The notes under the pieces are model-generated. The model had not been told where the DNA came from, did no database searches, and saw nothing but the letters and a program-made list of their open reading frames with translations. The translations under genes were made by a program, and so were the position numbers. This document shows, piece after piece, positions 57,176 to 64,000 of a stretch of 64,000 nucleotides of DNA. Within the stretch, counting starts at the first letter, position 1; each line of letters opens with the position of its first letter. Origin of the DNA: Felis catus (Eukaryota); contig NC_058368.1 in NCBI RefSeq assembly GCF_018350175.1, forward strand, positions 97,838,001-97,902,000, given 5' to 3'.

Positions 57176-58289
57176 TTTTTTTTAAATTCCTTTTTGCACC
57201 TTCTTACCTAGGGATTCTCCAAGAAACAGGAAGATTGAATCTCATCAGCAAATTCTCACAAGGGGGTATTTGTCCTGTTTTCACTCTCCCTGCTTGGAGA
57301 CTGATGTTCCACACGTCCTTTCAGATTTGGACTTGCCTTTGTCCAGTGGGGACTTCTGGGAGCCTGCCTCATTCCAGCACACCCGTACTCCCCCCGGATC
57401 ACGGCCACTGCCCCAAAAGGGGGTGTCTCTCATTTTAGACTGGGATCAGAAGGATCCAGATGGGTTGCCGCTTATAACTGGTATACATTTCAGCCCACGA
57501 GCAGAGGTGTGCAAGAAATAGTATGAAATTGTTTTTGTAACTCCACTTAATTTGTATTTTAAGCCTGGATCCCGCTGAAGTCCTGTTTGGATTTCTACCC
57601 ATCCCTCTGCGGAAATCATACAGAGCCACAGTCATGAGGGTTGAGGTGAGAGCATGATTACTGTTTAGAGGGGTATACACTTGTAGCTTAGAGGTCCAGT
57701 GGCTCGGTTGCCATGTTTCCTTTTGGTTTGGTGACTCTTGTGTCATGGGTGGGACAGGTTGGTTCTGCTCATATGCACAACACAGCCATCTCCTCCGAGA
57801 GTTTTTGCCATATCTAACCCTCTGACCGCACTTTAGAGATTCCTTTTCTTTCATGGTCCACGGACCTCTCTGTGATGATATAGATCTTAAGCTAGCAGGA
57901 AAAGAAGACAGTAAGTGTATAATTTCAAAGTTCCTGCTTCTGATAGGTTTCTGCTCAAGTATCCTCACTTTCCTGTGGAGTTTGGGATTTTAGAAATAAA
58001 AGCCCAGATGATAAGCACAGTATTGCTGCTTTCAGCCCTGCATGTCTTTCCTCTGGCCAGTGAACCCAGAGCCTGCTTCCCACTTGAATGCAGAAGGGAA
58101 AGGGTAAAAAATAAAGGGAGAAAGGGAAAAAAAGTCAACAAGAACAGATTCGCATCTCAAAATATCCTTTTACTCTTAAGAAGATGAGAGCTGAATTCAC
58201 GGGAAAGGTTCCATTGGGAAAAAGGAATGACTCTTGAAAATGGGTCTCCGCATTTGCAAAGGCTGTGTGGGATCCAGGTCCCCAGAATG

Positions 58290-58415
58290 CTCTGACATCA
58301 TCAGTGAGGTCAGAGAACTCTGCTGTGGGCCTGGTGACCTTTGAACCTTAACAGCCCTGTGCTGTAGCGAACCCTGGGCAGTGCTGCTCGTTCTCTGAGT
58401 CGTCTGACGTCCTCA
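58290..58415 (+). promoter_or_regulatory. Putative FAM170A proximal promoter with CRE-like sites and a DR1
   Basis: TGACATCA 58293-58300, TGAGGTCA 58305-58312, TGACCT-t-TGAACC 58335-58347 and TGACGTCC 58405-58412, all within about 260 nt of the ATG. Confidence 0.45.
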
Positions 58416-58554
58416 GCCATTTAGGGGACTCAACTATTTTTGCTTATATTGGGCCATTTCATCATATTTTCTGAGAGTCAAGAAGGGCCAACCAGCGAGG
58501 GAAAAGAAGAGCTGGGGGTTAGGTGTCTTCTAAGAAGCTTCTGTAGCTGGTACC

Positions 58555-58624
58555 ATGAAACAGAGACAAAAGAGGAAACATCTGGAAGATGAAGAGTCCC
58601 AGGAAACGGCTGAGCAGGGAGGAG
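58555..58624 (+). CDS. FAM170A: FAM170A coding exon 1
   Basis: accATG; MKQRQKRKHLEDEESQETAEQGG resembles the FAM170A N-terminus; donor G|gtatgt at 58625, phase 1. Confidence 0.93.
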
Positions 58625-59785
58625 GTATGTGCTGGGCATCTTGTCTGGGGGGGGCACAGAGGCTGCGGCCAGTCTGCGCCTCCCCCAGGGAGGCGGGCAG
58701 CAGATGTTGCTGCGTCTGTCCTGAGGGTCCCCGGTGGTGTGAGATGGCACAGGAAGGCCAGATGCCCCCCAAAAGCCAGGGATTCATCCCTGCCAGTCTG
58801 AGAACTTCTCTCTTGGCCTGTTCAGGCCTGGAGCTATGCTGGACTCAGAGCAGGCTGGGGTCCCGCTTGCCCAGGCTCAGTCCTGTGTTCTCTTTTATCC
58901 TCTTTATGTGATTTTCCTCTGGGGTCCCTGGGTGTGGGGTGTGATGGGTGTGGATAGAGATCGACCCATCAAAGAGGAAAGAGAAGCCTTGCTCAAAAAC
59001 ATTTTGAGAAGTGACATGCCTGTGCAGAAGGAGATGGTCTAGGGATGGCATCATACCGAAAGTGTGGAGATCGTATTCCTTTAGCAGGAAGAATTTGCCA
59101 GTTGATCCATGAGAGTTTGTGAATCTACAGGTGTGGGCTTTCCAGAGGGGATCAAAGGAAGGGAGGGGTCTTTTACAGACCATGCCCAGATGGAGGGGGG
59201 TGAGAAATGTAGTCAGGGACTTTCAGGGAGCTCCGAAAGCTGTGGATTTACTTCCTAGGGTGCATGGTGACTGCGTGCGTTTTACACAAACAAGTAGCTT
59301 GTCCTGAGAAAGTGGTTGGTCACATGCAAGTGGTGGGGCAGAGTGGAGACCACCCCAGAGATCCAGCTGGAGGCTTCTGTCCCAAATTAGAGCTCTCTCA
59401 TCAGCTTCCACGAGGTCCAGGGCCCTGAAGAGTGTAAGATGGGCCCTGGGAATGGAGTCCTGGACAGGAGGAGGATTTTGATGCAGCAGCTGGGATAGGA
59501 CAGAGAAAGCAATGATTGGCAAGATACGTTTGTCTCTTTGTGTGTGATGGGGCGGGGGGAGCAATGGGGAGAAGGGGGAGAGTGTCCTTAGCTGTGAAGT
59601 CTGTCTTGTAAGGTTCCTGTCACTTACCCATATACATTTTGATAGAGAAAAAAATTGCACATCTGCACACACACTATTTTATTAAATTGTACAGAGCATA
59701 TAGGCATATATGCATATCACTCATCCACTGTGTTCACATACGATCCATGTGTATCGAAGTCTTCTCCCGTTACACCAAACTCTGG

Positions 59786-59950
59786 AGTATAAGTGTGTCA
59801 CAGATACTCTATGGTACATACTTACACTAAAAATAAGCATGACCCAAATATTGCATGGGAACACTCGCAAATAAAAATTATTTGTGGTTTACCTGAAATG
59901 CAAATTTAACTGGGCGTCCTCCATTGTTGTCTGCTAACTCTGGGAACCCT
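59786..59950. mobile_element. MER53 palindromic MITE (partial) in FAM170A intron 1
   Basis: cccaaatattgcatggga...tttacctgaaatgcaaatttaactgggcgtcct...tgctaactctgggaaccct matches the recalled MER53 arm. Confidence 0.8.
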
Positions 59951-60497
59951 TGTATACTTCACACCAGCTGACATATCATACCCTGATTAGTGTCTGTCTT
60001 CTACCAGAACGTTCAACATTCCCAGAGCCTAGAAGAGTGCCTGATACATAGTAGCTGAACACTGTTGAAGGAATGGATAAATGAATGATTGAATACACGC
60101 CATAAATACAGACCATATTATATAAATCAGGAAATGTGACATGTCGCATGGTTCCTGAGTTGTGAATACACGCTATGCTCCAAATGCTCTATGCGTTTCT
60201 ACCCTGCTCGCCACACCGTCCCCACAGGCGTGAAAGGTTTGACTGATACATGTTATTCTCACGTGTCAGACATCCTGTTCACAGCCACCATTCAGGCCTT
60301 CGCTTCTGACAAGACACTAACAAAATAGTTATCGATAGTAACTAAATGCAGGAGTATCCATGGAGGACCAGACAGTCGACCACGTGTATTCGCTGCACCT
60401 GACCCAGGTCAGACCCTCTGTTAATATTTGTTGGATGGATGAGTGATGCATTAGCATGCCCCACCCATGGTGTCTCAGGCTTTCCTATCTTTCTCAG

Positions 60498-60638
60498 GAG
60501 TCTCGAAGTTGCAGGAGGATGCCCTTCAGCTTGGATCCCCTGGGGTGGCCAAAGGCTGGGGCGCAGGGGTAGGGGAGGTGTCCTCTGCCTCTGAATACTT
60601 CTCCTGTGTTTCTTCTCCACGCAAGTTCATCCATGGTG
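60498..60638 (+). CDS. FAM170A: FAM170A coding exon 2
   Basis: Acceptor tttctcag, 141 nt, phase 1 to 1, (G)VSKLQEDALQLGSPGVAKGWGAGVGEVSSASEYFSCVSSPRKFIHG; donor gtaagc at 60639. Confidence 0.93.
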
Positions 60639-61439
60639 GTAAGCGTTCAGGGCTCCTTGGATGTGGGGCCCCTTGTGTTCGGGGCTGGAGACACACAGAT
60701 CCAGGAGAGGCTGGGAAGGCATCCAGGACAGTCAGAAGTGATCAGGGCTCAACGGAGGAGCCCGGGAAGATGACGTAGCTGTTGGGAGAGTGTGGATACG
60801 AGCTCCATGTGGGAGAGCGTGAGCCCTGGTGCAATCATAGTGGGGAAGTTAAGATACAAGGGCCAGAAAGGTCCGAGCTCGAGCTGTCGGGCTGAGGGAC
60901 AGAATTAAGCACCTTCAGAGGAGCTGTGCAGGCTTTGCCTTTATCCTTACTTCCAGAGAAGGGCGGAGCATCTCAGCACAGGCCTCTCTGGCTCTGGAGC
61001 AAGACCATCCAGTTCAGATCCCCACGCCTGACGCCCACCATTCACTCCACGCACGTCCATTCTTAGCACGCACACCCCAAGCCTGTGATCTACAGTGCCA
61101 TGTTCTCCACCACTGTCCCCATGCCACATGCACACGTACCCCGATGGTAGCCCCAACTCAGCTTCTGCTCATGGCACGCGCAACCCACCACCGTCCCTCA
61201 CGTTCTGCAATGCCCTGCTACCTGACTCCACACCCCCACATACAGACGCCCCCCAGTCTCCCTACAAACACTCAAAGCCTGCAGATGCCACCAGATACAC
61301 CCCCCCACCACCCCGGAGTATGAACACCAACACCAAGCTGCTTACACCAACAGCCCCTCTGCCCTCTACCACACTTGAAGCTCCTTCAGCTTCTGGCCGG
61401 CCCCACGCACGTTCTTATGTCTCTAATTTCCTTTCCCAG

Positions 61440-62161
61440 GACTCCGGAGAGTACATCGAGACAGTACCCAGCCTAGATCACCCCTAGTCCAGGGTCAGGA
61501 GCGAGGGGAGACTGCTCCCCCCTCACACCAGGTCTCCTTCTCGTCCCCTTCATCCTATAAGACCTGTGTGTCCTCTGTGTACAGAAACAAAGAGGAAAGG
61601 GGCATGAAAATATACTACATGCAGGTACAAATGCAAAAGGGTGTGGCTGTCTCCTGGGAGACAGAGGAGACCTCGGAGTCACTAGAGAAGCAGCCGAGGA
61701 TGGAAGAAGTGACCCTTCCTGAGAACGTGCGGGTAGGTACTCCCCCCTCTGATGTGTCCACCAGAAACCTGCTGTCTGACAGCGAGCCCAGCGGGGAGGA
61801 CAAGGACCACGAGGAGCGGGCAGAGTCAGACAGCCCGCCAGGCTCACCCACTGTTGAGGAGAGACCCAGGGCCAAGACCCCCGACTGGCTGGTGACCGTG
61901 GAGACTGGCTTCCGATGCATGGCCTGCTGCCGGGTCTTCTCCACCTTGGAGGTCCTCCAGGAGCACGTCCAGTACGGGATCAGGGAGGGCTTCAGCTGCC
62001 ATGTGTTCCACCTCACCATGGCTCAGTTGACGGGCATCGTGGAACCTGAGTGCACCCAGGAGGAGGAGGATGAGAACGAGGAGGAGGGGGAAGAGAAGCA
62101 GGAAGAAAAGAACAAGAAGGAGCAGCCCGCGCAGGAGGACCCTCGTGTGAAGCGACCCTGA
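61440..62161 (+). CDS. FAM170A: FAM170A coding exon 3 (degenerate zinc-finger-like region and acidic tract); spliced ORF is 310 aa to TGA 62159-62161
   Basis: Acceptor ctttcccag, in frame with ORF 61568-62161; motifs MKIYYMQVQM, AKTPDWLVT, GFRCMACCRVF..LQEHVQYGIREGFSCHVFH and an E-rich tract. The exon probably continues to donor gtgag at 62206. Confidence 0.93.
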
Positions 62162-62369
62162 AGCCAGTGCCCAGGCTGTGTGTTTCATTCTCCAAAGGAC
62201 AACAAGTGAGCTGGGGCTGAGCGTGTGAGGGCTCTGTGCCTTCTCCACAACACTCCTGTCTCTCCCATCCAGGCTCACGCCTCCAGAATGGAGAGTGGGG
62301 GGTTTTGACAGCTCAGGGGACACCTTAAGGAGGGGGGGTGGGTGAGCGGGCCCCTTGCTTCTTGTCCAG

Positions 62370-62573
62370 GCATTTGATACAGTTATGACTGTCAGTGGGG
62401 ATTTATCCCGAGCTTTTCAGCTCCCGCAGGAAGTCCTGCAAATTTCTGAGGGCTAACCGAGCACCTTTCCTCTTGAACCAAGAAGCGTCTTTCTCTGTTC
62501 TGGTTTCCACACAGCAGTTGAGATCCATGAGCCATAAATTCCTGGAAGACGGTGTGGCCTTCTTTTGGGAGAA
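62370..62573 (+). other. FAM170A: Probable FAM170A exon 4 (3'UTR in this sequence); acceptor ambiguous (62370, 62421 or 62430)
   Basis: Three candidate YAG acceptors and a donor AA|gtaagt at 62574. Inferred from splice motifs only. Confidence 0.4.
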
Positions 62574-62764
62574 GTAAGTAAGGCCTGAGGTTGGTGTGGT
62601 CTGAGCTGATGTCAGGGGGTCCCAGGGGAATCTAGGGGAAGGAATTACATGGCCACACTGGGTTACCTTGTGGCTCCGCAGTGGCATCAGCTTGTGTCAT
62701 ACTCAGTGCGTCCAGGAAATTGATCTCCATTTCCTTAAGTGAGAAAGAATTGAAAAAAAATATC

Positions 62765-62976
62765 ATTTTAGTTTGTAAAATTTATTTTGAAAGAGAGAGG
62801 AGGTGGGAAGAGGCAGAGAGAGAAGGAGAGAGAGAGAGAGAGAGAGAAAATCACAAGCAGGCTCCTCACCATCAGCACAGAGCCTGACACGGGGCTTGAA
62901 CTCACAAACCGTGAGAGCGTGACTTGAGCCAGAACCAAGAGTCGGATGCTCAACTGATGTAGCTGCCCAGGTGCCC
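62765..62976 (-). mobile_element. Can-SINE in the FAM170A 3' region
   Basis: Reverse-complement body; tgagaaag on both flanks. Confidence 0.88.
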
Positions 62977-63424
62977 TGAGAAAGTGAGAGTTTTGATTGG
63001 CATTTATTTCATTGACTGCATGACTGACCTGAGCTCTAAGAGCAAATACTGCCAGCAGCCCTTCTGGGATGAGAGCTCATTGCAACTTCAAGGGCTAGGA
63101 GTGGTCTGGAGAGAGGACATGGGGCCTAGCAGGACCAGAGGTTTGAGGTGTGAGAAACTTCGGCCAAAACCAGCAGAGGGCCCATGGATGTAGCCCTCTG
63201 GAAGAAAGCAGAGTGTGGAGGGAGAGAAACAAGGAAGTGAGCCCCCAAGAGATCTGGGAATATTCCAGAACCTTCCGTTTGCTATAGTAGGTCTGGAAAT
63301 AAACTCAGTGTGGTGTGTGTGGCTCTGAGCTTTAAGGCAAAGGTGAAGGGTCACCCTGGCTCACGGAGCTCACGTTCACTTCTTGTCTCTTCCTGTTCTG
63401 CCTTATGTGTTTAATCAATTCCAG

Positions 63425-63560
63425 GGAGAAGAAAGGATCCTGGGGATAGGAGCAGATAAAATGCCAATGATGTGAAGAAAGATGAAGGAACCGGCATTCA
63501 ATCTGGCATCACATGAAAATATAAATACCATATGCAATAAAGGCTGTTTTCCAAACCTTA
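63425..63560 (+). terminator. FAM170A: Probable FAM170A terminal non-coding exon with poly(A) signal
   Basis: Pyrimidine-rich tract 63375-63420, ccag at 63421-63424, AATAAA at 63536-63541. Confidence 0.5.
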
Positions 63561-63585
63561 CCTGGATATGTTCTTTAAGTGAAGT

Positions 63586-63634
63586 TATCTATCTATCTAT
63601 CTATCTATCTGTCTGTCTGTCTGTCTGTCTATCT
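63586..63634. repeat. (TCTA)n(TCTG)n microsatellite
   Basis: Seen directly. Confidence 0.9.
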
Positions 63635-64000
63635 ACCATCTACATCTTTCCCTCTAGTGGCTCATGAACCAGGTCTCCTATAAGCACCAAAGACGCCCAC
63701 AATCCTTTTCCCGCAGCAACAGTACTGAAGCACTCGGGATTGATTAGGCTTTTGTGTGACTGTTTTCACAAGGCTGGATTCCACAAATGACAAACTACAC
63801 TGGCTTCAGAAGAGGTCGTCGGTAAGTAGCGGGTGCTGTAAAAACTGTGTCCCGTGGGTCGTGTTTGAAAGCAGTGTGAAGGCAGTCTTCAGAAGGCTGC
63901 TGGCTGGTGTGCATATCTCCCCAGGTCTGGCCTGGATGAGGGCTTATGAGTTGTGGCTTCACAAGGAAACACCAGGACAGAGGAGAAATTTCTGAGTTTT

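Follow-up and report, generated by a model that had tools for sequence, protein, structure and literature searches.

According to the available text of two reports (PMC7401401, PMC11760970), FAM170A/ZNFD of mouse and human is a nuclear protein with a C2H2 zinc finger, specific to the testis and found in elongating spermatids, and its knockout makes males subfertile or infertile. The mouse protein resides in the nuclei of elongating spermatids and its loss is linked to subfertility and abnormal sperm nuclei; the same text does not deal with the C-terminal tail of FAM170A. Because mice need FAM170A for male fertility and for sperm heads to form normally, a truncation common to all cats would be relevant to comparative reproductive genomics. 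We found no literature linking FAM170A with carnivores and, judging by title and leaving supplements aside, none linking it with cats; in the available text of a preprint on fertility pseudogenes in the cheetah (10.1101/2024.04.26.591110), supplements aside, FAM170A has no occurrences. The 310-residue length of the protein is already recorded in RefSeq for many felids. What is new is a modest example of a lineage-fixed C-terminal truncation, predicted to escape mRNA decay, with parallels in foxes and bats.

The explanation that we favor, and hold to be very probable as a whole, is that one G-to-A change converted the only Trp codon of the FAM170A tail from TGG to TGA on the felid stem lineage, later than the separation from hyaenas and mongooses but earlier than the divergence of the living cats, and was then fixed. 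The resulting mRNA would escape nonsense-mediated decay, a working protein of 310 amino acids would be made without its last 17 residues (Trp plus 16), and removal of the tail would most likely be neutral or nearly so.

The window, a stretch of 64,000 nucleotides of the Felis catus genome, carries FAM170A on the forward strand. Coding exon 1 (58555-58624) begins with the ATG at 58555, encodes a basic N-terminus (MKQRQKRKH...) and ends at the donor GAG/GTATGT, and coding exon 2 (60498-60638) lies between the acceptor ...TTTCTCAG/GA and the donor GTG/GTAAGC. The coding part of exon 3, felid stop included, spans 61440-62161 and holds a beta-hairpin block and the C2H2 zinc-finger/Spt46 region. Intron 3 (62206-62514) has GT at 62206 and AG at 62513-62514, and exon 4 starts at 62515-62521 with the ancestral stop (C AGT TGA); splicing of this intron is predicted from the Ensembl-type model P0001, which ends ...KDNNS. 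All FAM170A splice sites in the window sequence are canonical. When 58555-58624, 60498-60638 and 61440-62205 are spliced to 62515-62521, the product up to the TGA is 310 amino acids long and identical to RefSeq Felis catus FAM170A (P0124), in agreement with the gene name and the protein length proposed in the initial annotation.

The TGA lies in frame at 62159-62161 of exon 3, with its third base at 62161, exactly where the initial annotation had placed it. Read on the forward strand, the frame is CGA CCC TGA AGC CAG TGC CCA GGC TGT GTG TTT CAT TCT CCA AAG GAC AAC AA, followed by gtgag, and translates as ...RVKRP, stop, SQCPGCVFHSPKDN, so that an open relic of the tail, SQCPGCVFHSPKDN(NS), follows the TGA. 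These letters agree with those first reported, and only the boundary needs a slight adjustment: the exon ends at 62205, with the donor GT at 62206-62207. The relic, SQCPGCVFHSPKDN plus 2 nt, occupies 62162-62205, is now the 3' untranslated part of exon 3 and aligns with the tails of non-felid orthologues. Behind the TGA the old frame reads SQCPGCVFHSPKDNNS as far as the ancestral stop at 62519-62521; were intron 3 left unspliced, this frame would terminate immediately (AAG TGA, 62204-62209). The tail with its CxxC..H pattern is accordingly absent from the felid product, as had been proposed. A UniRef model for Felis catus (P0001, 326 amino acids) equals the window reading with the TGA codon omitted. 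Rather than another allele, this model represents an artefact of annotation in which a 3-nt 'intron' conceals the stop.

Several other features were observed in and around the gene. The acceptor of exon 4 (62510-62521) is a tandem CAG/CAG of the NAGNAG type, and use of its second site alters the end of the old tail by one residue, a choice that is now irrelevant in cats because the region is untranslated. Intron 1 contains a palindromic match to the mir-1302 family at 59781-59833, scoring 37.9 and 33.5 bits on the two strands (gathering score 62), which we take to be a probable relic of a MER53-type transposon. Downstream of FAM170A there is a (GA)n tract followed by a SINE-like element (62795-62985), presumably a carnivore tRNA-derived SINE from its appearance, and a (TATC)n/(TGTC)n microsatellite at 63585-63635.

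A search with exon 3 returned 184 proteins at E<=0.001, the named top matches being FAM170A of placental mammals. Pfam PF17734 (Spt46/zinc-finger region) matched residues 218-264 of P0124 with 50.1 bits against a cut-off of 29.5, and this match stops short of the C-terminal tail. When the cat assembly (2.43 Gb, 71 contigs) was searched with hyaena FAM170A, the window locus had 86% identity and two paralogous loci had 50% (on C1, 1.28 Mb away) and 36% (on C22); neither paralogue carries the FAM170A tail in its matching exon. On these comparisons the window locus is identified as the FAM170A orthologue, distinct from its paralogues FAM170B and FAM170A-like. Among the features compared for membership of FAM170A, the best matches to mammalian FAM170A and the PF17734 region are present in the cat, and the tail W-S-Q-C-P-G-C-V-F-H-S-P-K-D is not, its Trp being replaced by TGA. 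The tail does not define the family, however, because many other accepted orthologues of FAM170A lack it or have only an eroded version.

The third FAM170-type locus ('FAM170A-like') was observed on C1 at about 99.179-99.180 Mb (L002, 1375..2145), downstream of the window. It has its 50% identity to hyaena FAM170A over residues 93-269, an open stop-to-stop frame of 256 amino acids and a basic K/R-rich end as in alpaca FAM170A-like P0117, without the WSQCPGC tail.

In order to reconstruct the ancestral codon, 93 named sequences from 120 listed matches plus the felid cluster were aligned, 80 of them non-felid. All 14 tail columns are present in 63 of these 80, among them an unrelated extension in Molossus that was misaligned. 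Of the 63, 55 open the tail with Trp, including all carnivore outgroups sampled (Hyaena, Crocuta, Suricata, Ursus, Phoca, Mustela, Meles, Gulo and Nyctereutes), and the same tail core occurs in the monkey sequences P0017 and P0027. Since Trp has a single codon, the felid TGA corresponds to a G-to-A change at the third base of TGG. The alignment thus supports the ancestral Trp proposed in the initial annotation, with TGG having become TGA in cats.

Twenty of 21 felid or felid-like sequences (P0002, P0121-P0139) end at ...KRP, the exception being the stop-skipping model P0001, a count that rests on the members listed, the main felid protein cluster having 20 members of which five lie outside the listing. 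They represent 13 species of both subfamilies: Panthera pardus, P. uncia, P. onca, P. tigris and Neofelis nebulosa, together with Felis catus, Prionailurus viverrinus, Lynx canadensis, L. rufus, Acinonyx jubatus, Puma concolor, Herpailurus yagouaroundi and Leopardus geoffroyi. The products of one Logan contig and one ENA contig also end at ...KRP. Felid DNA was also sought in public metagenome contigs, where 407 pattern matches to the cat protein included none encoding a relative. The sample consists of protein records, and we take the caracal and bay cat lineages to be two felid lineages outside it.

The stop is shared by big and small cats but missing from hyaenas and the meerkat, which places its origin on the felid stem, with subsequent fixation. 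From this distribution the stop is judged to predate the living Felidae and to be fixed among them. Because linsangs, the closest outgroup, lie outside the sample, the age is bracketed only; a change on the felid stem would be older than about 11 million years and younger than about 35-40 million years. The recent or polymorphic change first suggested gives way to an old and fixed one, given the same ...KRP end in 13 species of both subfamilies. Wide sharing of the stop across carnivores, which had been named as evidence against the initial reading, is found within Felidae but not beyond, where hyaenas, the meerkat and caniforms keep Trp.

A stop codon that precedes the last exon junction by less than about 50-55 nt does not trigger nonsense-mediated decay, and the protein made is truncated at its C-terminus. 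In felid FAM170A the distance from the stop to the last exon-exon junction is 44 nt (last stop base to the end of exon 3), so the mRNA should be spared this decay; if intron 3 were retained, the stop would sit in the last exon. From this position the FAM170A mRNA should be stable and the truncated protein produced normally. It would keep the basic N-terminus, the beta-hairpin block, the C2H2 zinc-finger/Spt46 core and the acidic tract, and the 44 nt behind the stop would be a young 3' UTR that has had too little time for decay.

How much the lost tail matters can be judged from other mammals. Within its core, F-H-S-P-K-D, the residues F, S, P, K and D are each kept in 57 to 61 of 63 tails and H in 49 of 63. 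The core is well kept where it is present, which speaks for a function of the tail in other mammals; losing it may have come at a cost to cats. Of the 80 non-felid sequences, 43 retain both tail Cys; one or both are missing from 19 real tails: those of rhino, donkey, Rhinolophus (in which the tail is present and Phe replaces the second Cys), mole, golden mole, marmoset, owl monkey, several rodents and elephant shrew, and among cetaceans those of right whale, Kogia and four dolphin, porpoise or river-dolphin models. The tail has the appearance of a moderately constrained short linear motif rather than of an obligate zinc site. In an AlphaFold2 prediction of hyaena FAM170A (46 aligned sequences), pLDDT was below 50 for nearly all of residues 271-328, tail included, and the confident parts were residues ~125-145 and ~215-270; this model is weak overall (mean pLDDT 49.9), and low pLDDT is no proof of disorder. 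The prediction suggests that the lost tail is probably a short disordered peptide. A structural zinc site in the tail was considered and rejected on the low AlphaFold2 confidence and on the 19 real tails that lack one or both Cys.

The tail is wholly or partly missing in 17 of the 80 non-felid sequences, all of them protein models of which some may be annotation artefacts. Models of Vulpes vulpes and V. lagopus (P0013, P0147, P0150) end ...EDLGST, four codons before the Trp, and the raccoon dog Nyctereutes (P0145, P0151) keeps the whole tail; by comparison of these models, the loss in foxes appears to be an independent truncation within Canidae. Eight models of yangochiropteran bats (P0050, P0053, P0060, P0064, P0069, P0075, P0077, P0082) end ...QPTG, eleven codons before the Trp. 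Two UniRef models from dog and dingo (P0094, P0105) were seen to be short, at 223 and 236 amino acids, and to diverge from the conserved sequence within and after the zinc-finger region; either they are poorly annotated or the gene is damaged in Canis.

Cats show a family-wide tendency towards many malformed sperm, as described in the literature on felid reproduction. It is conceivable that loss of the tail is not neutral and weakens the condensation of sperm-head chromatin in all cats, or that the tail is restored by readthrough or A-to-I editing, and we consider this improbable. If tail loss were non-neutral, it could contribute to the family-wide malformation of sperm, which inbreeding would in that case aggravate in cheetahs and others. 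The initial annotation had recommended the TGA as a variant worth testing for teratozoospermia. With the allele evidently fixed in the family and only the reference-type allele seen, it cannot explain differences in teratozoospermia among cat species or individuals, and it should not be taken as a candidate disease variant in screens of cats or wild felids.

That the whole of FAM170A is a decaying pseudogene in cats, with the TGA as only its first lesion, strikes us as very improbable, although some RefSeq felid records are named 'FAM170A-like' and the paralogue with an open frame 1.28 Mb away might take over its role. Against such decay, all 13 felid species have an intact frame of 310 codons, free of further stops and also of indels, the acidic low-complexity tract included, and the splice sites are canonical. 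Nor does cat FAM170A show any acceleration of rate relative to hyaena or meerkat in differences to bear (cat 48/285, hyaena 50, meerkat 52), seal (46, 51 and 51) and rhino (53, 55 and 62). Sites that vary within felids (n=25) avoid conserved positions: only 1 is found among the 101 sites with a non-felid conservation of 90% or more, against 24 among the remaining 185 (Fisher p = 0.00027); this comparison covers residues 25-310, with six poor or partial non-felid models dropped and exon 1 (alternative starts) omitted. The distribution of these substitutions indicates that the shortened felid protein remains under purifying selection.

Still less probable, in our estimation, is that the stop is recoded and a full-length protein made, whether by UGA readthrough, by insertion of selenocysteine or by A-to-I editing, which would turn UGA into UGG and so bring back the original Trp. 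The 13 codons behind the stop are unchanged (SQCPGCVFHSPKD) and the frame is open as far as the ancestral stop, as recoding would have it, but substitutions have already occurred at two of the three terminal tail residues (K to N and N to S), and an intact stretch of 13 codons is expected by chance at the observed rate. Leaky readthrough contexts are UGA-CUAG or UGA-C, whereas the base following the felid stop is A (UGA-AGC). No SECIS or other Rfam match was found at E<=1 in 58000-64000, the sub-threshold mir-1302 match aside, and the codon originally specified Trp instead of Cys or Sec. Folding of the RNA is no better than that of shuffled sequences (z = 0.06 for 62159-62280 and z = +2.0 for 62040-62280), and 61440-63400 holds no inverted repeats of at least 16 nt, so that no editing substrate is visible. 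With neither a leaky context nor a downstream RNA structure at the felid TGA, and no SECIS or double-stranded RNA found, the readthrough that had been mentioned as a lesser option finds no backing. On these computational negatives, which fall short of proof, selenocysteine, readthrough and editing were each rejected, none having any supporting feature.

The rate at which the tail has changed also bears on its intactness, from which the initial annotation had argued for a recent event. Over residues 25-310, cat and hyaena differ at 42 of 286 positions, cat and meerkat at 40 of 285, and hyaena and meerkat at 37 of 285, which puts about 22.5 changes per 286 residues (8%) on the cat branch since the feliform ancestor. 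Compared with the state shared by feliforms and caniforms (...SPKDKNN), 2 of 16 residues of the cat tail have changed, the same K to N and N to S. Since this is at or above the rate for the whole protein on the cat branch, the intactness of the tail is uninformative, and the unchanged run of 13 codons after the stop would be expected by chance over this time span. An undecayed tail thus does not imply a recent change.

We assign a negligible probability to an error of sequencing or assembly at the TGA, and likewise to a variant that is polymorphic or private to the cat sequenced. Independent assemblies of 13 felid species yield products ending at the same residue, and two sets of RefSeq cat accessions share the 310-residue sequence. 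In addition, all 248 sampled words of 60400-62700 are contained in 14 run rows from this organism, which come from 10 samples and 5 studies and may include the source itself, or in 13 (9 samples, 4 studies) with the possible source set aside, where the chance that no sampled word covers the TGA site is an estimated ~3% if the words are random.

A felid-stem TGG-to-TGA change followed by fixation makes the locus a natural deletion experiment, one that suggests the last 17 residues of FAM170A to be dispensable or nearly so and that has been repeated in foxes and bats. It is a modest evolutionary curiosity and reveals no new kind of biology.

Compared with FAM170A of mouse and human, the felid gene is an orthologue with the same Spt46/PF17734 region, four-coding-exon layout and basic N-terminus, but its product ends where the Trp would open the conserved tail and lacks the 17 residues from there on. 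Mouse and rat FAM170A (P0040, P0045) differ in the other direction, the tail motif being internal and followed by more residues. The losses in Vulpes, many yangochiropteran bats and some hystricognath rodents resemble the felid one in that the same tail is cut or eroded and the zinc-finger core kept; they differ in position and mutation and are seen in protein models only. One or both tail Cys have been lost elsewhere in perissodactyls, cetaceans, mole, golden mole, some New World monkeys and several rodents. The felid stop, 44 nt before the exon 3/exon 4 junction, also resembles truncations that escape nonsense-mediated decay, an escape predicted here from position. Finally, like the felid pseudogenes of the sweet-receptor gene TAS1R2 and of UGT1A6, as presented in the available text of PMC1183522 and PMC3065456, FAM170A carries a mutation of a disabling type that is shared by the family and would have arisen on the felid stem. 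Those two genes represent complete loss of function in that text, whereas felid FAM170A has had a short tail removed and the rest of the protein appears to remain under selection.
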